From a virus, in the IMG/VR virus record IMGVR_UViG_3300045988_103544, positions 18,803-82,802 of that record: a stretch of 64,000 bases of DNA; one strand, written 5' to 3'. Position 1 is the stretch's first letter. Every line of letters begins with the position of its first letter. The notes below the pieces were generated by a model, which worked only from the letters and a program-made list of their open reading frames with translations, was not told where the DNA came from and ran no database searches. Position numbers and translations under genes: made by a program. This document shows positions 3,682-63,186 of this stretch, one piece after another.

Positions 3682-5208
3682 TTAATTATTTCCTTTAATA
3701 GTTCCCATCAAAATATCTTTATCTTTTACAATAGTATAATTAATACTCCATTTAGTATGTCCAAAATTAGCTGTAATATAATTACTACTACCATACATAC
3801 TACCTACTGATATATAATCAAACTGCTTACCAGTAGTATAAGCATAATTATGTAAATCACCTTTTACTACATAAATATGAGGACTACATATACCTTTTTC
3901 TGCTATATAATTAGCAAAGAATAATTCAGTCTGAGGATTTAAAGTAAGAGGAAATTGTCTAGTCTGAAAATTATTATCTTTACCATGAGCATATAGGAAC
4001 TGATGATCTCCAATGATAAAGTTATCAATAGGATAGTTACTAATATAACTCTTAATATTATATTTAGTTAAATATGCAGCTAAGAGTTTTTGATTTAACC
4101 ATTCAAAATCCCCACCATGATTAGATTCTCCTATAGAGAGATAATTAAAATCTTCACTTTTTACTTTTACTGTGAGAGTAGCAAAGAACTCCATCATACA
4201 CTCTATAAATGCTTCACTAATTTCTTTATTATCAAGAATCTCAGGAAGCTCATGACCTCCTCTAGTAGTTTCTTTATTGAATCCATCAATAGAATCTCCA
4301 AGATTAACTACATATACAGAATGATATTCTTGTCCCACAAAAGATTCCACAATTCTAGATAATCTAGATTTAATTTCTTGAACATCATAAGAAGGTAACT
4401 GTACAAAACTACTATATTTAGCATTATAAGCTCCGATATGTAAATCAGATAACCATATAATTAAATCAGGATATTTTGCTTCTTTATTATTAATATTTAC
4501 TGGAAGCTCTTTATAATCCTTTACTGTATTTTTAATAGTATCTTCTATAAGTTCCCTATTTAAAGACTTAGAGGTTTCCTTAGTTAACTTAGTAACTAAA
4601 GCTCTTAAATCCTTTACCTCATCTTTCTCTATTCTTTTTAAGAAATCATTCTCTTTTTCTCTAAGATGCATTTCTTTTAATTCATCTTCAGTATATTCTT
4701 CATACATATGAGGAGCAAATGGAGAGGATGCTTTAGTAATATTAAAAGCTCGTAAAATTCTTTTAAAGTCAATAAGAGAATAGTCTGGGAAATATCTGCT
4801 GACAATCTGCTGGGTTAAACCAGAACCGTAATAAGTATACATTCTATATACACTATTCATTTCGTTTCTAGTAAAGACTCCTGTGATTGCGGGCTTATTT
4901 CTTCTGAAAATCTCAAACTTATATTCAGTAATTTTACCAGTCTCCTCGTCTCTTATTTCCCAAGTATTAGAAGCATCATCTGTATCTCTCTTTACTTCTT
5001 TTTTCTTAGTATCCTTTAGTCTATCATATAATTCCAATATCTTCTTGTCATCTTCATCTTTATTTTCTTTCTTTCTAAGATTTCTCATTGTAATATATAC
5101 AGTATTTATATTTTTTCCTGATATAGTACACTGAGCTTTTAAAGAACGATTATTATTAATTGCATCATTAAAGAACTTAATATAAGAAGATTTTGTTGCT
5201 TGTTTCAT
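3682..5208 (-). CDS. Calcineurin-like metallophosphoesterase with ~250-aa N-terminal extension
   Basis: Motifs in order: DLHIG (D-x-H), LGDSIDG (GDxxD), ESNHGGD (GNH[DE]), YAHGK, GDLHN. Confidence 0.55.
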   Translation of the reverse strand: MKQATKSSYIKFFNDAINNNRSLKAQCTISGKNINTVYITMRNLRKKENKDEDDKKILELYDRLKDTKKKEVKRDTDDASNTWEIRDEETGKITEYKFEIFRRNKPAITGVFTRNEMNSVYRMYTYYGSGLTQQIVSRYFPDYSLIDFKRILRAFNITKASSPFAPHMYEEYTEDELKEMHLREKENDFLKRIEKDEVKDLRALVTKLTKETSKSLNRELIEDTIKNTVKDYKELPVNINNKEAKYPDLIIWLSDLHIGAYNAKYSSFVQLPSYDVQEIKSRLSRIVESFVGQEYHSVYVVNLGDSIDGFNKETTRGGHELPEILDNKEISEAFIECMMEFFATLTVKVKSEDFNYLSIGESNHGGDFEWLNQKLLAAYLTKYNIKSYISNYPIDNFIIGDHQFLYAHGKDNNFQTRQFPLTLNPQTELFFANYIAEKGICSPHIYVVKGDLHNYAYTTGKQFDYISVGSMYGSSNYITANFGHTKWSINYTIVKDKDILMGTIKGNN

Positions 5209-5280
5209 ACTTTTTTAAAAATTAGATAGCTGTTACGCCTTTATAAATAAAAGTATCTAGTAAAATAAAAGGTATCTAAA

Positions 5281-5316
5281 TTAAAAAAGGCAGATACTCT
5301 CGCGAGCACCTGCCTT
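5281..5316 (-). terminator. Rho-independent terminator downstream of CDS 5339-5983
   Basis: Minus-strand hairpin AAGGCAG...CTGCCTT (7 bp) followed by TTTTTTAATTT. Confidence 0.5.
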
Positions 5317-5338
5317 ACTTTAAAAATTATGAATAAAA

Positions 5339-5983
5339 TTAAAATTCCAAACCAAAGAACATATAGCGACCATTCTTAGTACTCTTAGATGGAGCATAAG
5401 TTACAGTAGCTACTACTGGGTCAGAGCCAATAGACTCCTTACCCTGAACGATATCGATCTGACCCTTAAAGCCCTTCTTAATAAGTTCCTTAGCCATTTC
5501 CTTAGCTGCGGTCTTAGTAGGACGAATAACCTTTGTATCTGGCTCAACACGACCAGTATCGTTACCATCCTTATCAAGAATTGCTTCACCAGCCTTTTCG
5601 TTCTTTACACGCTCAGACTTCAAAGTTTTCAGTACTTCCTTTGTATCGTGGTCTACCAAATCAAACTTCTTCTGAGTATCACGCTTACCCTCAGTCTTAA
5701 TATCAACAACCTTCCAAGGACGCTCACGTGTACTTACAACAGCACTAGAAAGAGTTACAATGAAACCACTACCAGGAGCATTCTTAGTCTTTTTCTTCAA
5801 ATACTCCAGCTTAAATTCCTTCTCATCATTAGAAGTTACTTTAGCATTCTTCTCATGGAACTTCTTCCATGCCTGTGTTGCATCACCATTAATATGAAAA
5901 TTCTCTTTCTCTACCTGTGCTACTGCTGCTTCCTTTGTTTCTGCACTTACTTCAAAACTCTTAAAATTAAAAATTTCACTCAT
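5339..5983 (-). CDS. hypothetical protein; GC-richer than flanks; likely start MSEIFNF
   Basis: 226-aa ORF with internal Met preceded by non-coding-looking codons; GC-rich codons (GCG, CCG) unlike neighbours. Confidence 0.5.
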   Translation of the reverse strand: MSEIFNFKSFEVSAETKEAAVAQVEKENFHINGDATQAWKKFHEKNAKVTSNDEKEFKLEYLKKKTKNAPGSGFIVTLSSAVVSTRERPWKVVDIKTEGKRDTQKKFDLVDHDTKEVLKTLKSERVKNEKAGEAILDKDGNDTGRVEPDTKVIRPTKTAAKEMAKELIKKGFKGQIDIVQGKESIGSDPVVATVTYAPSKSTKNGRYMFFGLEF

Positions 5984-6113
5984 TTTCAAAAATATATTAA
6001 CATTAATTCTTATTATCAAATCATCTGCGATGTTTTTTTCTTTATCTTTATAAGGCTAATATAATCTATATTTTTTGCCTCCAAAAAGAAAATTATAAAA
6101 AAATTAATTTTTT

Positions 6114-6473
6114 TTAGAATGGAAGAAATTTTCCCATTAATTCTCTTATTTTTGTTGGCATATCTTTTGGTTGCACGCCAAATGTTGGAAAATCGGTACA
6201 TCCATATGAAAAATCCTCAGTGATGATAGCAATAGCTTGTATTGTATCTTCATCAAGACCTGTTTTTTCTGCTAATTTAGCAGTTACTTCATAATAAGTA
6301 ACTCCAGGTTTTTTCTTCTTCATAGAATTTACCATATATCCAAGTAATGATATAAGTGCAAATTTTAAATTTATACTTTCCCCTAAAGACCCTAAACTAA
6401 AGTATTTACGATATAAATCGGAAAGTTTAGTATAATCAGGTCTCTTGAGTAATTCCGAATCCCTCATAACCAT
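6114..6473 (-). CDS. hypothetical protein (119 aa)
   Basis: Minus ORF. Confidence 0.4.
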   Translation of the reverse strand: MVMRDSELLKRPDYTKLSDLYRKYFSLGSLGESINLKFALISLLGYMVNSMKKKKPGVTYYEVTAKLAEKTGLDEDTIQAIAIITEDFSYGCTDFPTFGVQPKDMPTKIRELMGKFLPF

Positions 6474-7482
6474 GCATACAATAGAATGCTACTAATTTAA
6501 GAAGGTGAGTAAACTCTTTAAATCCTTTATTAAAAAGTTCTCTAGTCATAGGAACTACTTTAGTATTAAAATTTGGAATAGTTTCTACTACTAAGAAATT
6601 ACTTCTAATTTTAGGATTCTCAATGTTATAATTCTTCTTAGCAGCCATAGTTAATAACCAACTATATAAAGCCATCTCTCTATAATAGTGATATTTAATA
6701 AGAGCTCCTTTAGCAAAATTATTTATTAAATCTCCTGTGGTTTTTAAATCATTTACAGTGATTATTCCTTCTTCTTTATCTATACTATAATTATCAAGTT
6801 TAGACTTAATTTTTAGTATAAAAGGTTTATGCTCTGGAGCCTCTACTAAAACATCTATAAGGAAAGCTATCTCATTACCAATAATTGGTTGTTCTAGTGA
6901 CCCTTCAGGGTTTAGTAAAGATTGAATTTGTGTATCACTATCTAGAGACTCTAGACAGACTTTCAGTTTAGCATGATTTTTAGGATCTGTAAATATTGGT
7001 GTTCTAGCATCATTATTTTCTTTTTCAAAAGCTTTTCTATTACACCAGTATTGAGCGCAGTCTGCTAACACTTTTTCTATTTTTTTATCTGACATTTTAT
7101 CTTTATAATAATCACATTTATCAGATGCTTCTAATATAATATCATTAGTAACATTGATACCTTGTGTTTTCTTATAAATATAGTCTGCCATTGACCCCAT
7201 TTTAGCAGTAGGTCTGCTAACATCTGTTAGAAAGAAGTCATCAGGTTGTAAAACTAAAGTATGTAGCCAACTACCAAATTCCAAACTAGTTGTATTTAAC
7301 TTAGTCTTACCCCAATTATCAAAGAACTCTGTTGGAGAACCCTCTTGATCTGGATTTATCTTAGATAATCTAGAGTTTGAGATATAATTATTATACTTTT
7401 CTGAAAAATAAGTATTATCATCAATATCTTCAACTCTTAAAGTCTCTATCAGAGGTTTAATAGAAATTTGACTTAATTTCAC
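6436..7482 (-). CDS. Putative PD-(D/E)XK-type nuclease (348 aa)
   Basis: VNDLKTTG (D..K) and downstream YHYYREMALYS resemble the PD-(D/E)XK core; weak. Confidence 0.35.
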   Translation of the reverse strand: MKLSQISIKPLIETLRVEDIDDNTYFSEKYNNYISNSRLSKINPDQEGSPTEFFDNWGKTKLNTTSLEFGSWLHTLVLQPDDFFLTDVSRPTAKMGSMADYIYKKTQGINVTNDIILEASDKCDYYKDKMSDKKIEKVLADCAQYWCNRKAFEKENNDARTPIFTDPKNHAKLKVCLESLDSDTQIQSLLNPEGSLEQPIIGNEIAFLIDVLVEAPEHKPFILKIKSKLDNYSIDKEEGIITVNDLKTTGDLINNFAKGALIKYHYYREMALYSWLLTMAAKKNYNIENPKIRSNFLVVETIPNFNTKVVPMTRELFNKGFKEFTHLLKLVAFYCMHGYEGFGITQET

Positions 7483-7993
7483 GTAAGTAATTGTTAAAGT
7501 CTTCCGACTCTTTTATACATTCATACCCATATTCTATCTCTTCTTTATCTAAACTATAAATCTTACCATAAGGACCCCATTTTTCATTAGATTCAGAAGC
7601 TATTAATAAGCAAGGCAATCCTGCTAGATTCATCTGAATAAAATTATTAATAGAATCATCAATGAAAATATCAACTCTACCTTTTATATACCGAGCTTTA
7701 TTAGCACGCTGATATAAGACTTGATAAACAGGTTTATTAGGATAACCATTATTCTTTAGCCATGTTTTACTATAGTCTTTATTGCATACTCTTTTAGTAC
7801 AATATAATTCAGGTATAAAGTTTATTTTATTTTTTACTGGAAGATTTATCCACCATTCTCTGTCTTTTATTAAAACTTGTTGTACATTTTTTGTTATTTC
7901 TTCATCAGACTTAGGATATCCAAATCTTTTTAAATATGGATTCATAAACTCATTTAAGGTATCATCTAAATCTAAACCAATTCTTAATTTCAT
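7457..7993 (-). CDS. HAD-superfamily 5'(3')-deoxyribonucleotidase-like protein
   Basis: N-terminal HAD motif I, MKLRIGLDLDDTL (DxDxT). Confidence 0.55.
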   Translation of the reverse strand: MKLRIGLDLDDTLNEFMNPYLKRFGYPKSDEEITKNVQQVLIKDREWWINLPVKNKINFIPELYCTKRVCNKDYSKTWLKNNGYPNKPVYQVLYQRANKARYIKGRVDIFIDDSINNFIQMNLAGLPCLLIASESNEKWGPYGKIYSLDKEEIEYGYECIKESEDFNNYLREIKSNFY

Positions 7994-9983: not shown

Positions 9984-10006
9984 AAAAACTACTTACTTTA
10001 TAATTA

Positions 10007-10777
10007 CTACATATCTGCCAGCATAGCATCGAAGTCTTCATCTTGAGCCTCCTTGCCTTCAGTAGAGTCAATAGATTTAGCCTCTTCTGAATCAGCTGCT
10101 GGTACAGGAGCAGTAGGCTTACGCTTCTCCATATCTTCTTTCTGCTTAATCTCATAACTAGAGAATGACAATTTATCTTCCTCTAAGCTAGCAAAATTAT
10201 CACGGATATAGAACTGTCCATCACTATTAATAGCTCCAATATCAGGAATCTTAGCAAATACATTGCCAGTTTCCTTTGAGATTCCCTTTTCATCCTTTTT
10301 CTTTTCCTTACGACCGCTAAGCTTTAAATAAAAGTTTTTATTCATACAATGCTTAGTCAATACTGCCTGGAAAAGCTGCATGAATTGGTCAGTACTCTTA
10401 CAAGCAGGAGCTTTAGTTATAAACAATTCTTTAGCTTTATCACCACCTACTACTGTTATAATATGCAGCATAAAACCTTTAAGCTGTTCAAATGCTGAAG
10501 GAAGTACATATGGGAATTCTACACCCTTAGAATCCTTTCTCTTACCCTCATATCTTTTAGCAGAACTTTCATTAGGATAAAATAATGATTCTTGATAAGT
10601 TCCTTGTTCTCCTTCAAAATGAAGTACCAGAGATTTCCAAGTTGTACTAGGGTCTTGTTTACCTTGACCCTCCTTAGTTTCTACACTTTTTAACTGAACG
10701 AGATAAATTCCATAAGGACGAAGACCTTTCTTACTTGTAGGATTAATATCACCAAGACCCCCAAAATTCAAATTCAT
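10007..10777 (-). CDS. hypothetical protein with acidic C-terminal tail (possible SSB-like)
   Basis: 256 aa ending EAQDEDFDAMLADM, reminiscent of SSB acidic tails; speculative. Confidence 0.3.
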   Translation of the reverse strand: MNLNFGGLGDINPTSKKGLRPYGIYLVQLKSVETKEGQGKQDPSTTWKSLVLHFEGEQGTYQESLFYPNESSAKRYEGKRKDSKGVEFPYVLPSAFEQLKGFMLHIITVVGGDKAKELFITKAPACKSTDQFMQLFQAVLTKHCMNKNFYLKLSGRKEKKKDEKGISKETGNVFAKIPDIGAINSDGQFYIRDNFASLEEDKLSFSSYEIKQKEDMEKRKPTAPVPAADSEEAKSIDSTEGKEAQDEDFDAMLADM

Positions 10778-34185: not shown

Positions 34186-34515
34186 GTGGAGCATTGGAGA
34201 GTCGAACTCCAGTCACTCCGATTTGCATCAAAACGTTCTTACAGCATAGGTTTTAAAGACTATCCTTGTCTGTTAGGGTTGACAAGATTAATATTGTCAA
34301 CTTCCACCACTCTGTTCCTAAAGTATACAGAGAACTAATAAAGAAATGAAAAATAGTGCACCTTTCTGTTCCTAAGCAAGTGCTGCTCGACTTATTAGGC
34401 AGCAGCCTGATAAGCAGGAGTCATATTGATAACTCTAGCGATTATTGTTTTGTTGTCTCTCCAACTGTCTTGCTGTGTTTCTTATCTCCTCGAAGTTCAA
34501 AACCACGAATGCCCC
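34186..34515 (-). ncRNA. ssrA: tmRNA (SsrA-like), ~330 nt
   Basis: 5' end GGGGCAT pairs with 3' ATGCTCC-A, including the G3.U70 alanine identity pair. T-arm GGAGTTCGACTCTCC. Internal tag-like frame ...ARVINMTPAYQAAA followed by TAA TAA. Confidence 0.6.
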
Positions 34516-45770: not shown

Positions 45771-45840
45771 TGGAGATACGTGGAATCGAACCACAATCTC
45801 AGGATTTTCATCGTGCTCTAACCTTTTGAGCTATATCTCC
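45771..45840 (-). ncRNA. tRNA-like element (70 nt) with canonical acceptor, D and T arms but no foldable anticodon arm
   Basis: GGAGATA/TATCTCC acceptor, GCTC/GAGC D-stem, T-arm TGTGG-TTCGATT-CCACG; middle ACGATGAAAATCCTGAGAT does not form a 5-bp stem/7-nt loop. Confidence 0.3.
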
Positions 45841-45948
45841 ATAGCCCACATTTCTATAAAGGAGAATAGTGGTAACACCTACCTATACTAATAAATTTAT
45901 TAGTCAGGATTTATCTAAACACACTAACAATATATCAAATTAAATTTG

Positions 45949-46032
45949 TACGGTAGAAAGGATTCGAACCAATGACCTTCTCGAAATGACCTATTATAAA
46001 AAGAGATGCTCTAACCACTGAGCTACTACCGT
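45949..46032 (-). ncRNA. tRNA-like element (84 nt) with enlarged 20-nt anticodon-region loop
   Basis: ACGGTAG/CTACCGT acceptor, GCTC-AGTGGTTA-GAGC D-arm, T-arm ATTGG-TTCGAAT-CCTTT; central stem TCTC/GAGA encloses TTTTTATAATAGGTCATTTC. Confidence 0.35.
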
Positions 46033-46087: not shown

Positions 46088-46486
46088 TTAAAAGCCGAAT
46101 GAAAACATGGTATCTGCGGAAGTACTAAGAGTTACGTAAGGAATTTTATTTCTTACTGTAATAAAGACAATAAAGCGTCTTCCTGTATTAACCTCTCCGC
46201 AATTATGGATTTCTACTCCATCCTTCATTTCAGAAGAGTATATTTTTAATACCATTTTACCAAACTTACTATTACTAAAAGTAATAGTTTTTCTAGCTTC
46301 ATTATATACTACTGAAGTTTTAATATATAATGGGTCACTCCATTCACCATCTTGATAAACAGTGATAGAACCATAATTAAACGCATGAGCTATTGTAGTT
46401 AATACAATAAAACTCATTAATAAAATAATCTTTTTCATATTACTCAATCTTTTTAATGTTAGTACGGAGTAAAGGATTCGAACCAA
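46088..46486 (-). CDS. secreted hypothetical protein (132 aa)
   Basis: Signal peptide MKKIILLMSFIVLTTIAHA. Confidence 0.45.
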   Translation of the reverse strand: MVRILYSVLTLKRLSNMKKIILLMSFIVLTTIAHAFNYGSITVYQDGEWSDPLYIKTSVVYNEARKTITFSNSKFGKMVLKIYSSEMKDGVEIHNCGEVNTGRRFIVFITVRNKIPYVTLSTSADTMFSFGF

Positions 46487-46543
46487 TATAACCTCTCTAT
46501 GAATTGTGGAAATGAGGCGCTCTAGCCATTAAGCTAACTCCGC
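46463..46543 (-). ncRNA. tRNA-like element (81 nt) with enlarged 20-nt anticodon-region loop
   Basis: GCGGAGT/ACTCCGT acceptor, D-stem GCTT/GAGC, same unusual T-arm ATTGG-TTCGAAT-CCTTT; stem GCCTC/GAGGT encloses ATTTCCACAATTCATAGAGA. Confidence 0.35.
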
Positions 46544-52077: not shown

Positions 52078-53450
52078 TGTTAATGTGTTAAATTTAATTA
52101 TGTGATATAGTTATTTTATTTCCATTCTTTACATATGAGATGAATCTAATGATTTAGCAAATTTATCTGCCAAGTCATTATTATGAAATATTATTTCAAT
52201 TCCACATTCTGATATAAAGCAGCTTTGAATACTATTATCTGCTTTTCCTTTTTCGATTATCGCTTTCATATTTAATGTTATTATTGTTCATTACCGATAA
52301 TAGTTATGGATTTAATATCTTTATATTCAAGAATAATATTATTCATGTATTCATTACTAAATACTATTCTATCAAGATACTCATATTTATTCATTTCATA
52401 AGCATTAGTTATAACACCACCATTAGTAATAATAACTCCATGTACTTTCTCAATATTTGCATATAAGATATTTACTATATCATTTAATACATTTCTATCC
52501 ATAATTTTAATGTTAAAGAGTTAATAATCTAGTTAAGAGCAGTTTATACACATGCTCAGGTGTTTGTGGTTATCTACAAATATCAATATCCATATCAGCC
52601 CCTCGATTTGCTTCAAACGCGTCCCAATCAAAACCTTCTTTTGCAACTTTTAAACTATGCTCTACTTCAGTTGCATATGATTTAAGTTGTTTATAGAATG
52701 TAATTTTACCAGTATGTGTTATAGACTGTCTGTACAGTTTATAACTACGTTCAGGATATTTTGTAACCTCTCTTCTTCCCCATTTAGTTAGTTGATGAGG
52801 ATTGAGTCCTATTTTACACATTGTCAAATCATCACCAACAATTGTGTATACTATCGCGAGGATTAAGCACTTTAGTTTTAAGACCTATAAACCACGTTGA
52901 GGTATGCTCTATGATATAGGATTTCGTCTAAAGTAAACTTTAGACAGGGATTTCAACCTTAAAGTCATTAAACAAAACATTTGTTTATTTTTTATTTGTG
53001 TTGTTTTGATTTTAGTTTAACTCAATATTTAAAATAAAATAATAAAGTGTTGTATTTTGTGATAAATATTGAATTTGTAATATGGTTTAAAAGTGATTTT
53101 AGGTATGAATTTGTAGTGAATATTTGAGATTTGTTGTAAATTGGAGATTGAGTTTTGGGGAGTCGTATATGCTCCCTACTTTATCTCTTTAGATTCCTCA
53201 ACATCGGAAATTAATCCAATAAGATAGTTTTTATATCTTATTTTCAAGATTCCACTACTAACATGTTTCACTTCTTCCCATGTAGCTCCTCCATCAACCG
53301 AGACAATTAAAAACCAACCATAAACAATATTTGAAATATATTTATTACGATAAAGTTCTAATGTTTCAGAGTTAATGAAATAATGTTTAAATGCTAATCC
53401 ATAAAATGTCTTAAACATACAAACACTACAAAAAAATAAATAGAAACAGT

Positions 53451-53475
53451 AAAAAAAGGGGACAAAGTCCCCTTT
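53451..53475 (-). terminator. Rho-independent terminator after CDS 53478-53948
   Basis: Minus-strand hairpin GGGGAC-TTT-GTCCCC followed by T7. Confidence 0.55.
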
Positions 53476-53477
53476 AA

Positions 53478-53948
53478 TTACTTCTTGATACTAAACTCCG
53501 ACCAAATCTTACCTCTAGCGGACTTAGTAGCTTTCATTACTACTTTCTTGTTGTTCTTAACGGCTTTATCATAAGCCTCCGCGCACTCTTTGCAAGTCTT
53601 ACCGGCGAAAACTGTTGCAAAGTTGCCGGCAATCATTACGTGGTTACCGCCGCCGAAGACTACGTTACCGTCATCGTCCTTAGTGAAACCTACCCCCACT
53701 AAGATTGGGGCTTCACCATTTGGAACACGCCCGTCAGGTGTCAACTCTATTCCTAACTGATGAGTGCGTTGCAAGAGCTGCTCATCAGCAGTGAGTTCAC
53801 GGGACATCTGACGTGTCGTGAGCTCTACACTGTCAGGGAAGCTGACAGCAAACTCAGTGTTTTCTACTAAGGCTTCACCTAAGTCAGCCTTGTACATTTT
53901 CTCCAAGCCTAAAAGGCTGAGACTGATTTCATTGTTTGAACCTTTCAT
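53478..53948 (-). CDS. hypothetical protein, GC-rich compositional outlier (156 aa)
   Basis: Minus ORF with GC-rich codons (CCG, GCG, GGC) unlike the rest of the window. Confidence 0.5.
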   Translation of the reverse strand: MKGSNNEISLSLLGLEKMYKADLGEALVENTEFAVSFPDSVELTTRQMSRELTADEQLLQRTHQLGIELTPDGRVPNGEAPILVGVGFTKDDDGNVVFGGGNHVMIAGNFATVFAGKTCKECAEAYDKAVKNNKKVVMKATKSARGKIWSEFSIKK

Positions 53949-54341
53949 AATCTTAATGTTTAATTGTTATTAATTTTTTGTTTTGTTTTTTGACTAAATA
54001 TGGTGGGGGGACTAAGGAGGTAGTCTACTCCCTCCCACATAATAAAAATTAATTTTTAAATTTTAACCTCATCCTACTTACTTACAAAAATTCCTATTTT
54101 TTAAACCCCAGGGGGCTATATAAAATCTTCTCTAAAAAAATTTTAAAATTTTTATTTTAATTTCTTAGAATATTAACTTTTACAAAAATTAACTTTTAAT
54201 ATTCTCTACCTCGACTATATTACTCGTGTAATCAAAAAGAAATATTAAATGAATAAAGAACAACTAATACAAAGTATTAAAGACCTTCCTGATTAGTATA
54301 ATATAAATTTATAGGTTATTGATAATGTAATTCATATAACC

Positions 54342-54551
54342 ATGACTAAAAAGGTAGATGAATTTGAAGAATATTGTAGTAAATTAGATGATGAAACATT
54401 TAACAATGCTTGTCTAATATTTGGAATTATCTCAGATATATCTTTAGAAGATTTTTCTTCTAATTTAGATAATTCTAAATATAAAAAATATAAACAAGAA
54501 TTTAAACACATAGTGGATTTTTTAAATGATAGAAACATTACAAAAAATTAA
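54342..54551 (+). CDS. hypothetical protein (69 aa)
   Basis: Plus ORF at the start of a plus-strand unit. Confidence 0.4.
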   Translation: MTKKVDEFEEYCSKLDDETFNNACLIFGIISDISLEDFSSNLDNSKYKKYKQEFKHIVDFLNDRNITKN

Positions 54552-54738
54552 TAAGATAGTTCCTAATCTTACAGTATCTCAATTAATAGAACTAGTAAAT
54601 ATTATTAATGGACCTAAATTAACTATAGATAATATGGTTTTAAAAGATATACCACATAACGGGTTTATTTCAATAGACACTAGTGATAATAAAACTACTT
54701 CTACTGAAAATCCTTTTAGTGTTAGTAGTTATCTATAA
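54526..54738 (+). CDS. hypothetical protein (70 aa)
   Basis: Plus ORF overlapping the previous one by a few codons. Confidence 0.4.
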   Translation: MIETLQKINKIVPNLTVSQLIELVNIINGPKLTIDNMVLKDIPHNGFISIDTSDNKTTSTENPFSVSSYL

Positions 54739-54747
54739 AGATAATAC

Positions 54748-54782
54748 TCTCCTATGGTGTAATGGTTAGCACAGAAGACTCT
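54748..54782 (+). tRNA. 5' exon of intron-containing suppressor tRNA (predicted anticodon CUA after splicing; Gln-type U1-A72)
   Basis: TCTCCTA-TG-GTGT-AATGGTTA-GCAC-A-GAAGA-CTCT, ending on U (a group I 5' splice site follows a U). Confidence 0.6.
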
Positions 54783-55785
54783 TAAAAATTTTAAAGTATG
54801 GAAAATAAAATTTATAAACTTACGGATAAAGAGTTTTCAGACTTAGTTAAGTCAAGTCTGAATATCTCAGAAGTTTTATTTAAACTTGGATATACTACTG
54901 TTGGAAACAGTTGGGGATATTCACAAGTTAAACAAAGAATGCAAGATTTAAATTTATCAGGTAAAGATTTTAGAGGCAAATCAGCTATAGTCGACTGTAA
55001 TGAAAAGAAAGAAATAGATGCTTCTAAATTATTATGTGAAAATTCAAAACACGCACGTAATATATTAAGAAGCTATATATTAAGAAACAAATTACTTCCT
55101 TATACATGTGCAATATGTGGAATTACAGAATGGCAGGGTAAGACTTTATCTCTAGAATTAGACCATATTAATGGTGTAAATAATGATAATAGAATAGAAA
55201 ATCTAAGATTTTTGTGCCCTAATTGTCATAGTCAAACCACTACTTATGGTGCTAAAAATAAACAAAAAGTAGAATCTAAATACGAACTTTCTGATGAATT
55301 AAAGAATTTAATTATTAGTTCTTATATAGAATTAAAAAATCAAAAGAAAGTTGCTGATAGATATAATTTAAATCCTAAAGCAGTAAAACAAGTTTTATCA
55401 GAAGCTGGATTAACTAAACAAAATCAAAAGTATGTTATACAATATGACTCTTCTCATAATGAAATAAGAAGATTTGGGTGTATAGCAGAATGTTGTCAAT
55501 GGTTAATGGATAATAATTTAGTAACTACTAAATTAATGAAAACTTGTAGAGCAACTCTAAATAGAAATGTTGGCATTCTTTGGAAAAACTATTACTTTGA
55601 AATATTGGATGCTTAAAGGATAATCCATAATCTTTAAGTAGAATCTCTTTTAATCGACTTGGAAGCGTATATACTTAGTATAAAGTGACAGGGCGCAAGT
55701 TTAAATACAGCGTGAACGACTAAATAAAGAGACTGGTCCTAGGACTGGATGTGATAGTCTAATCCTCTACAGAGGTGTTAAAATG
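54783..55785 (+). mobile_element. Group-I-like self-splicing intron (~1003 nt) in the tRNA anticodon loop, carrying an HNH homing endonuclease ORF
   Basis: Starts 15 nt before the HNH ORF. The 3' 170 nt are GC-richer and structured, with R-like (AACGACTAAATA) and S-like (GATAGTCTAATCC) group I core elements. The last nucleotide is G (55785), as expected for omega-G. Confidence 0.5.
54798..55616 (+). CDS. HNH homing endonuclease (intron-encoded)
   Basis: 272 aa, standard code; HNH motif LELDHINGVNNDNRIENLRFLCPNCHSQ; paralog of 44791-45498. Confidence 0.7.
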   Translation: MENKIYKLTDKEFSDLVKSSLNISEVLFKLGYTTVGNSWGYSQVKQRMQDLNLSGKDFRGKSAIVDCNEKKEIDASKLLCENSKHARNILRSYILRNKLLPYTCAICGITEWQGKTLSLELDHINGVNNDNRIENLRFLCPNCHSQTTTYGAKNKQKVESKYELSDELKNLIISSYIELKNQKKVADRYNLNPKAVKQVLSEAGLTKQNQKYVIQYDSSHNEIRRFGCIAECCQWLMDNNLVTTKLMKTCRATLNRNVGILWKNYYFEILDA

Positions 55786-55822
55786 AAATCTTTTAGCCAG
55801 GGTTCGAATCCTTGTGGGAGAA
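55786..55822 (+). tRNA. 3' exon of the suppressor tRNA
   Basis: AAA-TCTTT-TAGC-CAGGG-TTCGAAT-CCTTG-TGGGAGA-A. Pairs with the 5' exon (acceptor TCTCCTA/TGGGAGA, anticodon stem GAAGA/TCTTT). Spliced loop is CTCT+AAA = CUCUAAA. Confidence 0.6.
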
Positions 55823-55823
55823 C

Positions 55824-56105
55824 ATGATAGCAGCAATTTATGAATTAAATGGTAAGATTTTAAAAACAACTAATCTTACTAAAAAATTAAAACGATTAAA
55901 ATCAGAACCTAAGATTCTATTTCAATTAGAGAATGGAACAGAAGCTGATTTAGACCAATGGATTAAAGACAACCAAAATATAAATTCTAATTCAGAAGAA
56001 GATATAGAAATTAAAAAATATCATTATAGAAATCCAATTACAGGATATACAATGACTTCTATATATGATAATCTAGATGTTAATGGTTATATAAAAATTG
56101 ATTAA
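55824..56105 (+). CDS. hypothetical protein (93 aa)
   Basis: ATG right after the tRNA 3' end; the track entry 55812-56105 uses an upstream TTG inside the tRNA exon. Confidence 0.45.
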   Translation: MIAAIYELNGKILKTTNLTKKLKRLKSEPKILFQLENGTEADLDQWIKDNQNINSNSEEDIEIKKYHYRNPITGYTMTSIYDNLDVNGYIKID

Positions 56106-56263
56106 TGACTAACAAAGAATTAAAAGACTTAAAGTCTAAAATGAACAAAGTACTTAATGAAGTACAGTAGATTATTGATACTATAGGAGATAATGATTTA
56201 CAAGATAATCAATTAACTCTTGATTTTTGCGATAAGTTAAATGAATTATCTGTTACTTATTAA
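56105..56263 (+). CDS. small hypothetical protein with one in-frame TAG (recoded)
   Basis: MTNKELKDLKSKMNKVLNEVQ(TAG)IIDTIGDNDLQDNQLTLDFCDKLNELSVTY then TAA. Confidence 0.4.
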
Positions 56264-56294
56264 TAAATATTTGGGGATGGATATTTATTAATTT

Positions 56295-56336
56295 TAAAAA
56301 AAATAGCCGAGGCTTCTCATTTGAGAAACTTCGGCT
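56295..56336 (-). terminator. Rho-independent terminator at the end of the minus-strand late operon
   Basis: Minus-strand hairpin AGCCGAAG...CCTCGGCT followed by T8. Confidence 0.55.
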
Positions 56337-56345
56337 ATTGTGGTA

Positions 56346-57485
56346 TTATTGCTTTATATATAAAAAATTTCCTCCACCAGTATTCTAAGCATCATATTTT
56401 AATAAATCATCTCTGGTAAATATTTTATCAAAGGTTCTTAATCCTGAATGATAAGTTCCATTATCTAGAGTATATAAATCTACTGTTTTAACATTATTTC
56501 TAGATTTCATAGCTTCTATCTCATCTCTAATATTATCTATACTTCCGGAAACTAAACGAATTTCTTTACCAGCCTATATAATTATTCTTCCTCCAGCTAT
56601 AGAACCATATTCATCAGTTCTATTATTATTAGCTAAAAAATTTAGTCTGTTATTTACAGATTTACCATTTACTATAGCATTTAATATAGGACTTTTTCTA
56701 GAACCATTAGAATTACTTTCCATGAATAATACATTACCTTTAGAATCTGTTTTAAAACCAGTAACAGTATTTTTATATATTGGAGAAATCATACTTCCAT
56801 TAGGAATATCTGAATATTTACCAAAAACAAATTTACCAATAGAATCTATACCTATATAATTCTAATTATTAGGAGATATACTTTCTTTAGATTTGAAATT
56901 AGAAAAAGCAGTAATAGGAGCTGCTATACTATTTATAGGAGTATAATCACCTCTATTTCTATAACCAAAAGTATGCTTTGTTAAATTTATGGATTCTGGT
57001 ATACGATATCTTCTAGAGTTTATTTTAGTAGTATCATTTATAGTATAACTATTTGGAGATATTTCTATTTCTAAATTTTCTCTCCCCTTATTTTTAGTTA
57101 CTTTTTTATTAGGAATTTTAATTCTTTTACTAGTATGCTCAGGTTCTGAATCAAAAAATAACTATAGTTTTCTACTTAATCCATTTCCTACTAAATTAAT
57201 CAACTATTTACCACGTTCCCACATTGTTTCTTCTTTCTATTTAGAAGTAGATATTTTTTTAGCAGTGGGCATTTCTTTATATTTTGCCGGGTGGTATACT
57301 AAAGTAGATGTTGGTTTATAGGGATCTACTCCTTTAGCCTAAACCTATGGAAATATTATACTATTAGCTTTATCAGAATTAATTTTAAAAGGAATCTTAT
57401 TTGATTTTCTTCTACCATACAACTACCCATCTTCATACCAGTAATCATATATTGAATCATTATCAGTAATTACCTATACAGCCAT
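56346..57485 (-). CDS. late protein L8 (~379 aa), TAG-recoded (~11 in-frame TAG)
   Basis: Continuous frame from ATG 57485 (MAVQVITDNDSIYDYWYEDGQ...) through ORF 56574-56792 to ...KYDAQNTGGGNFLYIKQ then TAA at 56346. Only TAG interrupts it. Confidence 0.55.
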
Positions 57486-58606
57486 GGTGTTATTATTATT
57501 ACTGGAGTTCCTAATTTATCTAATATTTTTAATCCTAACACAGCTTTACTGTCTAAATCATATGAACTCCATTTCTACTTATATTCATTAGGATTAAACT
57601 TCCAAATATCTTGTGCCCTATACACTTTCTTACCATTAGATGTTCCTTCCTAAACTAAATGTCCAGCAGCATCAACTCCATTATCTCCAAAGTCTAGATT
57701 ATTATTAGCACCTTTCCAAGGAGTTTTATTAGTTATATTAGAAGCTTTCTGCATAGGTTTCTTAGTAAAGAAATCTAAAGTTTCAGTATTTTCATATACA
57801 GGAATATCTTTATATGGATATATCTTTCTTATATAGTTCTCATGTGGACCATAATCTACATTTATTTTCTTTACTCCATAAGAAGGATTTATAGTTTTAT
57901 TATATAAATAAGCATCAATCATATCATTACCTTTAGCTGCTTTCTAAAATCCAGTATATGCTTCAGGAGCATAGGTATTGTAACCTACACCAGTTGATAT
58001 ATAAGACAATACTCCAGCATGCTTTTTAGGACTTGCTTTATGCATATTATATACTATGTCTTCTATAGGATTAGCATTATTAGAAGTTCTCATAGCTACT
58101 TCTACTCCACGTTTTAAAGGAGCTTTTACAGCATATCCTATTGCAGGAAGCATTACTAAATAATTACTAGCTTTAGTTGGATTCTTAGATATATCTAAAG
58201 CACCTTTAGTATAATCATATACTGCCTAAGCAGCTGGAGCTAAAGCATAACCTATTCCTGAATTAACTAATGCTTTAATAGGACTAGTATTATTATTCCA
58301 ACTATCTACTTCTCTAGCATAAGCTCCTTTTATAGGATGGGTTCTATTCTTATTACTATAATTATATAATTTAGAATGAGTATGTCCTCCCTATTTTATA
58401 GTCCCTCTATTATCTACAAATACATCTTGTACCCCATTTAAAGTTCTAACTGGAATAACTCTCTACTAATATTTAGCACCAAGATATGGAGATTTAAATC
58501 TAAGATGATTTAGTCTATTATAATATTCCATATCTATAGCCATCTATTTATTCCGAGTATTATTATTTACTCCTTTATTTTGTTTACTTTCATCTACTAT
58601 TGGCAT
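57470..58606 (-). CDS. late protein L7 (~378 aa), TAG-recoded
   Basis: ATG 58606 (MPIVDESKQNKG...) runs continuously through track ORFs 57944-58153 and 57650-57922, joined by TAGs, to TAA at 57470. Confidence 0.5.
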
Positions 58607-58608
58607 AT

Positions 58609-58824
58609 TTATACTTTATTTTTCCATATACTAGTTATACTATCTATACCTAGTAATCCCATACAACAATATAAAACTGTATCTATCATATCAGGAGCTT
58701 GTATCTAACTAATAGAACAGTATATTAGAATAATTAAACTTACTATCCATCCTAATATTCCACATACTCTTTTACTACTTATTCCAGTATGTGCTGTTAT
58801 TAATTTAATTAAAAACTATTTCAT
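58609..58824 (-). CDS. small 2-TM membrane protein (holin-like, 71 aa), TAG-recoded
   Basis: MK(TAG)FLIKLITAHTGISSKRVCGILGWIVSLIILIYCSIS(TAG)IQAPDMIDTVLYCCMGLLGIDSITSIWKNKV; its ATG overlaps the upstream TGA stop (ATGA). Confidence 0.4.
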
Positions 58825-59959
58825 TTCTAAGAATTATTTAAGAACGGTAAACTCATACCTATAGGTGCTGCTATTTTGAATACATTAGGATCTAACTTAG
58901 GAATAGTTAATCTAGAATCTCGTAATATATTTCCAGTTATTCCTTTAAGAGGTATTCTATTCCTTTTCATATTAAGTGGAATTAAAAAATCCTCATTTAT
59001 TTCATACTCAATATTAGGATAATTACCTATTATATTAGAAGCTTTATACTAGTTAAGCTACGTTTTTGGTATATCTATATACTATAATTCTATAGGATTG
59101 TCAACTCCTTCTTTTATAGCTTTTCTTCGAGTATTAGAAGCATATATTAATGTTTTTCTTGGGTTATCAGTAAACCACATTCCTGTATATTTAGCTGTCC
59201 CATCCGGAGATGGAGTAAATTTACCATTAGTACCAGAAGCTCTATATAATCTCACCATACCCTAATCTAATTTAGGTTTCTAAAATATTCCTACTTCAAT
59301 AGGTTCTTTAGTTCCTTTCATAGTAAGTTGTCTAGTTTCATTCTAGATAAATCCAAAGTCTTTACCAAATCTATTTATACCATGAATACCTCCTTTAGAT
59401 ACAGAACCCCAAGTAGAGAGATTAGCACCTTCAGGTACTTCATCTGCAACCTTAGCAAATAGCTACATTTTATTACCATAGCTTAAACCATTTCTATCTG
59501 TTTTAAAATGAACTGAATAATTATTAGGTTCAGCATCCTTTACTAGTCCAAATCTTTGATTAGGCTATTGTTTAAAGAAATAAGAAGTAGCTTCATTTCC
59601 TTCAGCTTTTCTAGTACTCCAAGCTTTTCTAGTAGGTCTGTAATAAGATAACTGCATAATAGGATTATCTCCTGTTGTGTATTCTTTAGCAGCTAAGTTA
59701 TTAGTAATTCCTTGAGATACATTTCTAGTTAAATTTCCAGCAGTCTCATTAAGTAAACTATTTCTTGCCCAATGTGAAACTGTATTCTAACCCATCTTAG
59801 AGAGTGCTATTTTACCTAAACCTAATCCTAAATTTCCTGCAGCAATTCCTACTACAAATTCTCCTACTGGATCTGCTCCTGACATAGCTCCTGCTTGAGG
59901 ATTAGTACTAGTTTTAGTATTTCCATACTAATCTTTTACTGTAACTATCTCACTATGAG
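58821..59959 (-). CDS. late protein L5 (~379 aa), TAG-recoded (~13 in-frame TAG)
   Basis: ATG 59959 MPHSEIVTVKDQYGNTK...GGIHGINRFGKDFGFIQNE...LPFLNNSQK ending TGA 58821; possible longer N-terminus upstream. Confidence 0.45.
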
Positions 59960-60262
59960 GCATACTCCTCTTAGCTAAAGCTAATCTTTCTTTAATTGGT
60001 AGATTATTATATTTAGCTTTTAAATTTTTAGCGGCAGGCTATAATCTATTTTTTAAATTAGTAGGATTAAGAATTCCTCTAGATTGAGTATTTCTAGTTA
60101 TTTCTTAATCCTACTTAGATTGTTGCCACGGTAATCCAGTGGTTTTAAAATTTAATTTACCTGTTTTCTAATATTTAGATATCCATTTCATATCTCTTTA
60201 AATATTTATCCCATAACTATTTATCTCTCTCACTTACAAAATCTAAAAATCTTTGTAATTCC

Positions 60263-60778
60263 TCAATCTTTTCTGTCAAAATATATGTATCCATTATTAT
60301 TTTTATTGGGTTTTAAATTAAATCCACTACCTTTAGTTTTAGTAACATACAATGTTGGGAGAACATTAGCTCCATCATAAACTACTTTAGTTCCGCCATT
60401 ATTATAGTCATAATCGGAACCTAGATAGTCCATAGTATAATCTAAAGGCTAACCACTATTAGGTTTTATATATTGATCTTTACTTAAATAATATATCTTA
60501 TTATCTTTACTCCAAGATTTATCTCCTAAATCTGGATAAGTCGGATGAGTTTTAGTTTTATAAGTCCCTGAAGCTCCTTCATCAGGAAAATGCCCAGTAG
60601 GAATATACCTATTCCAATTATGTGCTAGAATACTGTTTAACTATAACCAAGCTACTATAGGTTGGTCATTATAGTATTTTCTATAATCGTAATGGTCTTT
60701 AGATAAATCCTAATTACCCCATGCTTGAGATAACTATTTACTCCAAATATTATAATTATTATTATTTATTTCTGGCAT
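60263..60778 (-). CDS. late protein L4b (~171 aa), TAG-recoded
   Basis: MPEINNNNYNIWSK(TAG)LSQAWGN(TAG)DLSKDHYDY...YFDRKD ending TGA; start overlaps the upstream gene end. Confidence 0.45.
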
Positions 60779-61406
60779 GTATATCAATAATATTAGGTAT
60801 AATCTAAATAGGTAACTATATCTTAGGACTTAATTTAATAACATCATTTGCTATTATAGTATTCCTTTTAGCTACCTATTCTAAATAAGATCTATTTAAT
60901 TCCTAGTTCAACTTAGATGTGAAGTATGAACCTTGACTTGGTCGAACTCCTTTTTTAGCTAATTTTTTAGTAGTTTCTTTTTTCTACTAATTTAATACTA
61001 CGTCGACTTGTCTCTTCCGCATAGCATTAACTCTTGGAGAATGATGTTTAGGGTAATAACCAGGTTTGTGTACGCTAGATCTAAGAAAATTAGAACCTCC
61101 CTTAGCTAAAGCTGATGCAAATTTAGCTCCTAATATATCTGCCCCAGTTTCCAAAGTATTTCATACGGCATTTCCAAAATTACTTGGGGATTCTTTAAAA
61201 GTCTTGTACCATCCTCTACCAGCTTGATAACCATCTATAACTAAAGAAGGCAACTAACCTACTCCAGCAATAATTCCTCCTATAGGAGCACCTACAGCGG
61301 TAGTACTTATACCTGCACCTAGTCCTAAACTACCTAAAGATATAGCTGCCGCGGTAGGTTCCCATTTATCTACTTGACGATCCAATTCTTCAAAAATTTT
61401 AGGCAT
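60762..61406 (-). CDS. late protein L4, Gly-rich membrane-like segment; TAG-recoded, plus one in-frame TGA
   Basis: MPKIFEELDRQVDKWEPTAAAISLGSLGLGAGISTTAVGAPIGGIIAGVG(TAG)LPS...FGNAV(TGA)NTLETGADILGAKF...; ATG overlaps the TAA of the upstream gene (ATGCCTAA). Confidence 0.4.
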
Positions 61407-62201
61407 TTCTAAATTTATTTATATATTTTGCAACACTAGTACCATTGGCATCAGACCCTCCTGCAATACCATACTTATAATAATTTTTAGTCCATTTTGG
61501 ATTTAACCATGATGCTGCTATAGCTTCTCCAGTAGCTGCTATACCATTATTTCTTAAAAATCTTGCATTATCATCATATAATTGTGATGCGGCTAATACT
61601 TGTGCATCAGGACTATTTTTAAACTGTTCTCTAGATAAATTAGAATATTTATTTCTAGTACTATCTATAAACTAGAACCATCCAGCAGCAGAACTATTTT
61701 TAGACTAAGCTTTAGGATTAAATCCTGATTCTAGAGAAGCTATTTTCATTAAAGTAGTTTTCTTGTTTCCAGTGATACCATATTTATCTAAAGTTTGTTC
61801 TAGTATCTTTTTACTTTTACTAGGGTTAGACTAAGCTTTAGGATTAAATCCTGATTCTAGAGAAGCTATTTTCATTAAAGTAGTTTTCTTGTTTCCAGTG
61901 ATACCATATTTATCTAAAGTTTGTTCTAGTATCTTTTTACTTTTACTAGGGGTATTATGATTTAATTTAAGCTGAGTATATTTATATTGTACAGGTTCTT
62001 TAGCTTTATTAATAGAAAAATATCCATCTAAATTTAAACCATTAATATGAAAATCTCCAGTATTTAATTCAGGAATATACTAATATTGTTTAGGAGTAAA
62101 ATCTAAATCTAAACCTTTACTTTTTAGTACTTCTGTAGCAGGCTTATCAGGAATATCTAAAGCTTCATATTTAAAATATTCACTCATAATTTTATCAAAC
62201 C
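61399..62201 (-). CDS. Lytic transglycosylase (SLT domain) protein, TAG-recoded (5 in-frame TAG), with a 42-aa tandem duplication
   Basis: MSEYFKYEALDIP...KIASLESGFNPKA(TAG)S...SSAAGWF(TAG)FIDSTRNKY... TAG falls on the conserved Q of the SLT GLMQ motif. ES catalytic motif present. Confidence 0.6.
61702..61953. repeat. Perfect 126-bp tandem duplication (2 copies) inside the SLT gene
   Basis: AGACTAAGCTTTAGGATTAAATCCTGATTCTAGAGAAGC...TTACTTTTACTAGGG occurs twice back to back with period 126; duplicates 42 aa including the ES catalytic motif. Confidence 0.8.
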
Positions 62202-62429
62202 ATTATGTATTTTAGAATGACAATTTTTACAAACACAAACTGTTTGAGATAATTCTTTAATAAATAAATCTGTAGGTATATGACTTACAGCTTGTGATAT
62301 ATTAAATAATTTTTCTCCAGTATGATGAAATTCTAAACAACATTTAGCTGATTCACCACATATTATACATTGTGTTTTATGTTCATTTAAAATCTTTTTA
62401 TTTTCTTTATAATATTTATTCTTACGCAT
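62184..62429 (-). CDS. Small HNH endonuclease (81 aa), standard code, inserted between recoded late genes
   Basis: CIICGESAKCCLEFHHTGEK...CVCKNCHSKIH zinc-finger/HNH motif; no in-frame TAG; overlaps both flanking recoded genes. Confidence 0.6.
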   Translation of the reverse strand: MRKNKYYKENKKILNEHKTQCIICGESAKCCLEFHHTGEKLFNISQAVSHIPTDLFIKELSQTVCVCKNCHSKIHNGLIKL

Positions 62430-63186
62430 AACTAGAATAATTACCAGGCTAATTAAAATTAACTAAAGCTAATGGTCCTAATCCTTTAGTAGCTCTATAA
62501 TAATTAATTCTTTTCTTTACCCCAGGTCTTGTAAGTAATAAATCTTTTCTGTAACCATTATAGCCTTTTTCAGAGTTATACATGTACTTAGCATTTTTTT
62601 GTATTCCATCATAGTACTACTAAAAATTCTAGGCTTTAAGTGAGTCTGGATACATTCTACTATGCCAATTAATTAGATGGTCTGCAAAAGATTGTGCATT
62701 AGGATATTTTTTATCATCTCCAGTAGCGAATCCAGTCCAACCTTTTTCTGCAACCTTTTGGTTAGTTAAATCTAAAGCTGCCTGTGGGGTAACTCCTTTA
62801 TCTACTAAAGCTTGATATATCTAAGTCACATTATTATATTGACTCCTAGTTCCAGGCATCTTACCTGCTAACTACATTTTAAGAATAGTGCCTCCATTAG
62901 CATGTTTCCATTTAGCAGCATTTCTAGCAAAATTAGCTCGACGTTTTTGTAAAGGAGTAGCATTAGGATTATTTAATACAGATTTAGCATGCTCCTGTAC
63001 AGATTCTCCAGCTGCTTTAGCTGAGGCAGTAAACTTACCCTTATTTTTATCTTTTATATGAATAGTATCTTTTCTATCTTTTATCTATCCGCCTTTCTTT
63101 AGTTTATTTATAAAACTATACTGATTTTTAATCTTAAAATCCTAATAGGCAGAACAAATTCTTTCTTGTAATTCAGAATTAGTCAT
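62422..63186 (-). CDS. late protein L1 (~254 aa), TAG-recoded (6 in-frame TAG)
   Basis: ATG 63186 MTNSELQERICSAY(TAG)DFKIK...KGG(TAG)IKDRK...ILKM(TAG)LAGKMPG... ending TAA 62422. Confidence 0.5.

Follow-up and report, generated by a model that had tools for sequence, protein, structure and literature searches.

A TAG-reading tRNA gene of a crAss-like phage, probably split by a mobile group I-type intron with an HNH homing endonuclease gene

In crAss-like and other recoded phages, the published model holds that a suppressor tRNA gates the late genes (PMC7886860; bioRxiv 10.1101/2021.08.26.457843). In Jade phages a "code change module" places the suppressor beside lysis genes (Borges et al., bioRxiv 10.1101/2021.08.26.457843). 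The suppressor tRNAs described are intact, and many recoded genomes are without a detectable one (Yutin et al. 2021, PMC7886860; bioRxiv 10.1101/2021.08.26.457843). Introns in phage tRNA genes are known from Lak megaphages, where they are short, were called "enigmatic" and lie in sense tRNAs (Tyr, Thr); neither a ribozyme core nor an endonuclease was reported for them (Devoto et al. 2019, PMC6784885). Here we analyze 64,000 nucleotides (nt) of viral DNA (IMG/VR record IMGVR_UViG_3300045988_103544, positions 18,803 to 82,802), referred to as the window and numbered from its first letter. Its source is a TAG-recoded crAss-like gut phage, and the gene under study is a tRNA gene with the anticodon CTA, tRNA-Sup(CTA), interrupted in its anticodon loop. 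We consider it highly probable that this TAG-reading tRNA is split by a mobile group I-type intron that carries an HNH homing endonuclease gene written in the standard code.

Bacterial group I introns in anticodon loops are found in cyanobacterial and plastid tRNA-Leu(UAA), cyanobacterial tRNA-fMet, Azoarcus tRNA-Ile(CAU) and Agrobacterium tRNA-Arg(CCU), inserted between positions 34 and 35 or 36 and 37. The Synechocystis tRNA-fMet intron, on a bacterial chromosome, encodes the homing endonuclease I-Ssp6803I of the PD-(D/E)XK type. T4-type phages harbor group I introns with homing endonucleases in td (I-TevI), nrdB and nrdD. A family of HNH-bearing group I-type introns in crAss-like amber-suppressor tRNAs, hiding these tRNAs from standard tRNA finders, looks new.

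To locate the splice junction, all candidate pairs of exon ends were joined in silico. The 5' half of the tRNA reads TCTCCTA-TG-GTGT...GCAC-A-GAAGA-CTCT from position 54748, and the 3' half reads AAA-TCTTT-TAGC-CAGGGTTCGAATCCTTG-TGGGAGA from 55786. The sole join giving a U before the intron (U(-1)), a terminal intron G, a 7-nt loop and a 73-nt tRNA was 54782|55786, with the anticodon CTA. The predicted ligated junction is GAAGACUCU-AAAUCUUUU, and ARAGORN folded the in-silico spliced sequence as a canonical cloverleaf of 73 nt with the anticodon cta. Intronless alleles were then located by scanning viral contigs for the tRNA D arm. In five of them (L006, L010, L011, L018 and L024; L numbers are our handles for related loci) the same exons are joined precisely at CTCT|AAATC, reading ...GAAGACTCTAAATCTTTTAG..., and in L018 and L024 the downstream open reading frame (ORF) is also the same as in the window. 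The intronless allele scored 63.6 bits as an Rfam tRNA, and ARAGORN again gave the anticodon cta. Since intronless, near-identical phages show the exons joined exactly there, the splice junction is fixed. The initial annotation, made from the letters alone, had proposed an intron-containing suppressor tRNA here, and the exons, their junction and the intronless alleles bear this out. In three relatives both strands of the acceptor stem differ in a compensatory way (TCTCTTA/TGAGAGA), and the D arm is one common to phage tRNA-Gln(TTG) genes. A recent origin of the suppressor by copying of the window's tRNA-Gln(TTG) was considered and, at 60% identity, rejected. In L010 (~7671-7747) and L011 (~7730-7806), a 76-nt insertion with the inverted repeat GAATAGC...GCTATTC, absent from the window, lies between the intronless suppressor tRNA and the next ORF (ORF3).

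No tRNA with a CTA anticodon was called in the window by default ARAGORN or Rfam, nor by ARAGORN with introns of 0-1500 nt allowed. These searches missed it because of the 1-kb intron at 35/36; for the intron option, the probable cause is an insertion outside the canonical 37/38 site. The 12-14 tRNA genes called by ARAGORN and Rfam lie at 26-28 kb and 42-47 kb, without exception on the minus strand. Three tRNA-like genes among this stretch of the minus strand (45771-45840, 45948-46032 and 46463-46543) have abnormal anticodon loops. ARAGORN called 45948-46032 as tRNA-Stop(TTA); base 37 of this gene is T, and its stems contain mismatches. In the L024 counterpart the T-run of the loop is one base shorter, and the ARAGORN anticodon is then ATA. 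The other two were called by Rfam only, and low-stringency ARAGORN assigned them 2-nt "anticodons". In an intergenic gap at 34186-34515 (minus), ARAGORN predicted a tmRNA-like gene with the tag peptide ARVINMTPAYQAAA; no Rfam tmRNA family matched it at gathering score.

To characterize the insert, about 20 homologous inserts were gathered with the HNH protein as probe, and their 13 distinct 3' parts were aligned. Under a scheme of 30 base pairs (helices in Table 1), 99.5% of alignment cells were paired, and 11 of the 30 pairs had changed on both sides. None of 500 shuffles reached the covariation score of this core, and sliding the partners by 1-3 columns lowered pairing to 34-46%. Covariation backed P3, P4, P6, P8 and P7, which forms the pseudoknot. 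The intron boundaries in the window are CTCT|T...ATG|AAA; U(-1) and the terminal G were present in 20 of 21 homologous loci, the exception being the Bohxovirus locus L002. The P7 and J8/7 sequences (GACUAAA; GAUAGUCU) are similar to the Rfam group I consensus. The predicted fold matches a group I core in helix order, in the P3/P7 pseudoknot, in the J8/7-P7 sequence and in the terminal G.

The ORF inside the intron starts 15 nt past the 5' splice site and encodes an HNH homing endonuclease, which the initial annotation left unmentioned, so that its account of the tRNA unit was incomplete. All 12 glutamine codons of this ORF are CAA or CAG, and it contains no TAG. Its closest named DNA matches are HNH genes of T-even phages. 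In a second clade of homologous introns the ORF extends through P3-P8. A free-standing, TAG-free HNH gene of 81 amino acids (aa) was also observed at 62184-62429 (minus), within the TAG-rich operon, where it overlaps both neighbors by a few bases.

The roughly 20 homologous HNH inserts all interrupt the anticodon loops of suppressor-type tRNAs, with CTCT on the 5' side and AA(A/C) on the 3' side. In-silico splicing of the HNH-intron loci gave an ARAGORN tRNA(cta) in 14 of 21, in differing tRNA bodies; all 14 have a U1-A72 pair, and the remaining seven have an unusual T arm. A scan with the core motif identified, among the matches listed, at least 18 loci giving a spliced tRNA(cta), with introns of ~980-1000 nt; some of these overlap the 14. 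With a few peptide or core motifs, dozens of similar split cases were found in IMG/VR. In L039-L044 and L046, intron-bearing suppressor-type tRNAs have the T arm GTGGG-GGCAGCA-CCTAC, which lacks TTC, and ARAGORN remained blind to them even after in-silico splicing.

The genes that would need such a tRNA lie next to it. The initial annotation had set a recoded minus-strand operon against standard-code genes, and the counts agree: 45 in-frame TAGs in 56346-63186, 4-11 per gene, vs. essentially none in the genes of 1-53948. A plus-strand gene starting at 63333 contains a further five. In the recoded genes TAG accounts for 58% of TAG, CAA and CAG together, and these three make up 4.2% of codons, a normal level for glutamine; in ten genes of the standard-code block the TAG share is zero. 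Wherever a window TAG differs in close relatives, CAA is found there (13 of 13), a two-base change. At TAGs of the relatives, the window has CAG (10), CAA (7), AAG (4) or TAT (1). In the SLT protein a TAG lies in AGWF*F, which we take to be the conserved Q of the SLT family motif, and at one position TAG aligns with Q of distant homologues. In the recoded genes TAG behaves as a glutamine codon.

The protein at 62422-63186 has homologues that occur as fusions with tail-lysozyme, LysM, CHAP, NlpC/P60 and glucosaminidase domains. Together with the SLT match, this indicates that at least two genes of the recoded block act on the cell wall. A holin-like protein and a lytic transglycosylase had been proposed initially among the recoded late genes; the murein transglycosylase (SLT, PF01464) is confirmed, whereas the "holin-like" label reflects hydrophobic segments only. 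The reassigned stop is confined to late, structural or lysis-type genes, "late" being read only from the SLT and cell-wall-hydrolase-associated proteins, and the replication genes use the standard code. Searches of PHROG and Pfam gave no match for ORF1-4 or most recoded proteins, and a tblastn search of GenBank phages with one recoded protein found only the near-identical MT835539. ORFs of the standard-code block end in TAA (54), TGA (21) or TAG (8), and 7 of the 8 TAG ends have another stop within 0-17 codons, as in the TAG-TAA at 10004-10009. Beyond its terminal TAG, the ORF at 53176-53418 (minus) stays open for a further 48 codons, to 53029, and may represent a gene with an in-frame TAG on the standard-code side.

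Two irregularities were observed inside the recoded block. The SLT gene contains a perfect tandem duplication (126 nt x 2, 61700-61951) that duplicates 42 aa in frame and is apparently single copy in the relatives; it could be real or an assembly artefact. At 60263-61406 (minus) the coding signal is split into four overlapping ORFs in differing frames even when TAG is read through. One of them is a glycine-rich, hydrophobic ORF of 81 aa that ends in TGA at 61161, with the next ORF starting at 61154. Possible causes are a frameshift, a further small intron or a second recoding event.

The initial annotation also expected the TAG-rich genes to depend on the suppressor, and this holds: full translation needs a TAG reader, and the only CTA tRNA found in the window is the split one. 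Until the 1003-nt insert is removed, this tRNA is non-functional. A further proposal was that placement and the splicing requirement together form a regulatory switch. Under this explanation the intron is a functional timer, with regulated splicing and the boundary position delaying late and lysis translation. Several observations are in its favor. The suppressor gene is set apart from the other 12 or more tRNA genes, on the opposite strand and adjoining the TAG-rich operon. The convergent layout is kept in four divergent relatives (L028, L029, L031 and L045) whose HNH proteins are 70-76% identical. Because the ORF lies near the 5' splice site, and in the second clade runs through P3-P8, its translation could also compete with intron folding.

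The distribution of the intron among relatives points the other way. The site is empty in L006, L007, L010, L018 and L024, whose flanks are 96-98% identical to the window, and in L011, with flanks 91% identical. The same HNH intron occupies it in L020, L025 and MT835539, and L014 and L023 have another intron there, of ~223 nt, without an ORF and with a classical CUCU/GGAG P1. The latter intron in L014 aligned over its full length to the Rfam family RF00028, at 16.8 bits (E 0.049), below the 50-bit cut-off. Empty, HNH-intron and other-intron phages all have the same TAG-rich neighboring genes, near-identical phages included. In the second clade, moreover, the intron-bearing suppressor sits amid TAG-free plus-strand genes, beside a gene that reads as dUTPase by its N-terminal sequence alone. 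ORF1, upstream in the same unit, already requires TAG read-through, although the tRNA as such is not translated, and a homing endonuclease is cargo typical of selfish spread. Known phage group I introns splice constitutively, which also counts against a timer. Sister phages do without the intron, and it acts like a homing element; splicing as a switch is thus unsupported, and we regard a functional timer as improbable.

As expected of a mobile intron, the endonuclease ORF lies inside the insert, and close relatives provide plus and minus alleles with an identical junction. Given its homing endonuclease gene and its presence in unrelated suppressor-tRNA bodies of other phage lineages, the intron looks like a tolerated selfish element, optional and mobile, rather than a conserved part of the code switch.

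Some results weigh against an active intron in a working suppressor gene. RF00028 gave no match to the window intron at gathering score, at E<=10 on 1.4 kb, or on the 181-nt core. It also missed motif-bearing introns in 20 other loci, and recognized unrelated introns in L062 only. Since the model misses these 20 loci, it does not capture this intron lineage; for the window intron, the large ORF and a divergent subgroup may be the cause. The candidates for P1 and the internal guide, read by eye, pair with exon CUCU by only 3 bp each. One is the GGA in AUGGAA (54798-54803, overlapping the HNH start codon) and the other the GGA in UUGGAUG (near 55603-55609, toward the ORF end); either could pair with exon UCU. 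UUGGAUG is invariant in all homologues, wobble positions included, and no covariation separates the two. The Bohxovirus homologue lacks the terminal G, the cleavage target of the endonuclease is assumed, and the suppressor, 60% identical to the window's tRNA-Gln(TTG), is not a close paralogue of it.

Two further P1 pairings, UUAAAG/CUUUAA across the ORF and ACUUA/UAAGU, were dropped; relatives break both without compensation. The Bohxovirus intron (L002, PV686213, ~5943-6992) is a homologous HNH intron in an unannotated suppressor-type tRNA; it ends in A, has no GGA at the ORF start, and may be a decaying or non-splicing copy. In L062, an environmental viral contig, a stretch of 3 kb (4099-7072, minus) contains three Rfam-recognized group I introns (66-74 bits), and a fourth site beside them carries the core motif of the window-type intron.

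The missing Rfam match, the 3-bp P1 candidates and the Bohxovirus copy would also fit a gene that the insertion had turned into a pseudogene. TAG would then be decoded by a host tRNA, by a phage tRNA outside the window, or by wobble through the TTA tRNA-like gene at 45948-46032, where U34 might in principle pair with UAG. Against this, the exons do not differ from those of intact alleles, and 14 divergent tRNAs with the intron retain the cloverleaf. The compensatory changes in the intron core indicate selection on RNA structure. In the TTA tRNA-like gene the stems contain mismatches, position 37 is a pyrimidine, and the loop differs by one T from that of L024 (ATA). We hold a pseudogene to be very unlikely. 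Practically negligible is a sense tRNA such as tRNA-Lys(CTT) with the intron in another register: joins such as 54783|55787 do yield a 73-nt tRNA with the anticodon CTT, but they make the last intron base A instead of G, and the intronless alleles of five relatives read CTCTAAATC, the anticodon CTA, which refutes it.

A split suppressor with a mobile intron would work as follows. The unit at 54249-56263 would be transcribed as one precursor, in which the intron RNA would fold into the P3-P9 core, excise itself and join CUCU to AAAUC, restoring the anticodon loop. The host would process the tRNA and charge it, probably with glutamine, and the tRNA would decode the TAGs that make up more than half of the glutamine codons in the adjacent cell-wall-degrading and other presumed late genes. 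Indirect hints of glutamine charging are the U1-A72 pair and the D arm common to phage tRNA-Gln(TTG) genes. Needing no suppression for its own translation, the endonuclease would cleave uninterrupted copies of the same tRNA gene in relatives infecting the same cell, and the intron would spread in this way. Self-splicing, homing, charging by glutaminyl-tRNA synthetase and any timing are steps that we infer from the sequence.

The window has a G+C content of ~30%, and nearly all its genes are on the minus strand. The products of block 1-53948 include an anaerobic ribonucleotide reductase (NrdD), a DnaB-like helicase, a SNF2/ResIII helicase, NAMPT plus a Macro domain, an AAA ATPase and an SPFH/flotillin protein; their predicted functions are replication and nucleotide metabolism. 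The closest named relatives of the helicase are crAss-like phages (Cellulophaga phi14:2, cr127_1). The plus-strand island between minus-strand blocks that had been described is real, and GC skew turns positive at 54-56 kb only. The strong terminator assigned to the recoded operon is also present, as a hairpin followed by U8 (Table 1). Read on the plus strand, the hairpin has a U-poor tail, and the plus-strand unit converges on it.

Other parts of the initial description required revision. It had started the unit at 54342, but L023 has TTA in place of this ATG and keeps the upstream ATG, the open frame and both TAGs of ORF1, and the start of ORF1 is most likely ATG 54249. It had put the first in-frame TAG in the second ORF after the tRNA; this ORF4 does have one, but ORF1 has two upstream of the tRNA. 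In more distant relatives the ORFs directly upstream of the tRNA likewise carry 1-2 TAGs. Finally, the tRNA had been placed exactly at the code boundary. Since ORF1 reads through two TAGs and the gene at 53478-53948, divergent and with its own terminator, is standard-code, the change of code maps between the divergent genes, at ~53949-54248; the tRNA, by this reading, is ~500 nt inside recoded territory. The frame-breaking indels in some relatives make ORF2 doubtful as a gene. The leader at 54139-54248 is presumed to be a promoter region. A promoter consensus scan and repeat searches found nothing above chance and no motif shared by the two divergent intergenic regions, and no temporal class can therefore be assigned.

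Table 1. Features of the suppressor tRNA locus and the adjoining genes in the window
Feature	Position	Strand	Remarks
Terminator-like hairpin of the 53478-53948 gene	53455-53475	-	Downstream of the gene
Last TAG-free gene, 156 aa	53478-53948	-	No PHROG match; transcribed away from the tRNA unit
Conserved A/T-rich leader of plus-strand unit	54139-54248	+	Inverted repeat AGAATATTAA/TTAATATTCT; homology of several relatives begins here
ORF1, 100 aa	54249-54551	+	In-frame TAGs at 54294-54296 and 54312-54314, upstream of tRNA
ORF2, 70 aa	54526-54738	+	7-nt and 26-nt frame-breaking indels in some relatives
5' exon of tRNA-Sup(CTA)	54748-54782	+	Acceptor arm, D arm, 5' anticodon stem, loop bases C32 U33 C34 U35
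Group I-type intron, 1003 nt	54783-55785	+	Between anticodon positions 35 and 36 (U35/A36); terminal G is G55785
HNH homing endonuclease, 272 aa	54798-55616	+	phrog_10822, E 2.7e-42; inside intron
Ribozyme core	55639-55785	+	Covariation-supported pairing
P3	55644-55650/55726-55732	+	Core alignment
P4	55658-55661/55689-55692	+	Core alignment
P6	55693-55700/55707-55713	+	Core alignment
P7	55718-55722/55755-55759	+	Core alignment; pseudoknot with P3
P8	55733-55738/55743-55748	+	Core alignment
P9	55764-55767/55772-55775	+	Core alignment
3' exon of tRNA-Sup(CTA)	55786-55823	+	A36 A37 A38, 3' anticodon stem, variable loop, T arm, acceptor 3' strand; CCA not encoded
ORF3, 93 aa	55824-56105	+	TAG-free; highly conserved in relatives
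ORF4, 52 aa	56105-56263	+	One in-frame TAG, 56168-56170
Intrinsic terminator of recoded operon	56303-56336	-	16-bp hairpin, dG -22.6, z -7.65, then U8
TAG-recoded operon, 6 genes	56346-63186	-	45 TAGs; long ORFs once TAG is read through
SLT transglycosylase	61399-62187	-	PF01464, 52.5 bits
Protein with cell-wall-hydrolase-fused homologues	62422-63186	-	Large protein search

The flank of the unit is variable. A hypervariable slot at ~52960-53940 adjoins it; L020, L024 and L025 align on either side and have unrelated sequence within. In MT835539, L011 and L014, homology to the window near the tRNA unit begins only at 54138. In L024 a RAGATH-1 hammerhead ribozyme (6350-6434, minus; 76.6 bits) lies in a region that cannot be aligned to the window, which has no such match.

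A broader hypothesis, which we offer as tentative and less likely than not, is that HNH group I introns specifically colonize amber-suppressor tRNAs, that split suppressors are widespread and overlooked, and that the endonuclease is a weapon against the suppressor of rivals. If so, split suppressors would explain a real share of the recoded phages without a detectable suppressor tRNA. During mixed infection the endonuclease would cut the only suppressor gene of the rival, cripple its late translation and convert the allele. In a weaker variant, competition between ORF translation and ribozyme folding on one precursor would slow the supply of suppressor. Suppressors counted as "missing" could be found by a simple screen with in-silico splicing, which would also benefit code assignment and gene calling in gut viromes. 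A selfish intron in the key gene of a code switch would also offer a tractable system for how mobile elements exploit essential RNAs and for whether they influence phage competition.

Like the recoded phages described previously (PMC7886860; bioRxiv 10.1101/2021.08.26.457843), the phage analyzed here has TAG for glutamine in late, structural or lysis-type genes, standard-code replication genes and a CTA suppressor adjoining the recoded genes. Unlike in those phages, the suppressor is split by an intron with a homing endonuclease; none is described in the available part of the text of either study (PMC7886860; bioRxiv 10.1101/2021.08.26.457843). The locus resembles the Lak introns (PMC6784885) in being an insert in a phage tRNA gene whose excision point is defined by presence or absence between genomes, and differs from them in its suppressor tRNA, group I-type core and HNH ORF. 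Our search of the open-access literature turned up no phage suppressor tRNA reported to contain a group I intron or a homing endonuclease; an earlier description is possible beyond open-access text.

As in the bacterial tRNA group I introns, the intron follows an anticodon U, ends in G and has a compact P3-P9; its P1 pairing with the exon would be very short, and its splicing would restore the loop. It differs from them in its host gene, a phage stop-codon suppressor, in the 35/36 site, in scoring below the RF00028 threshold, and in the large HNH ORF near its 5' end. With I-Ssp6803I it shares an endonuclease encoded inside a group I intron of a tRNA anticodon loop, presumably recognizing the intronless anticodon region; the enzyme here is of the HNH type (phrog_10822), and it is found in phage genomes and in many different suppressor-tRNA bodies. 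Like the T4-type introns it is optional and mobile, carries an endonuclease ORF, interrupts an essential phage gene and is polymorphic among close relatives. The T4-type introns, however, reside in protein-coding genes, whereas the host here is a tRNA needed by the whole recoded gene set.

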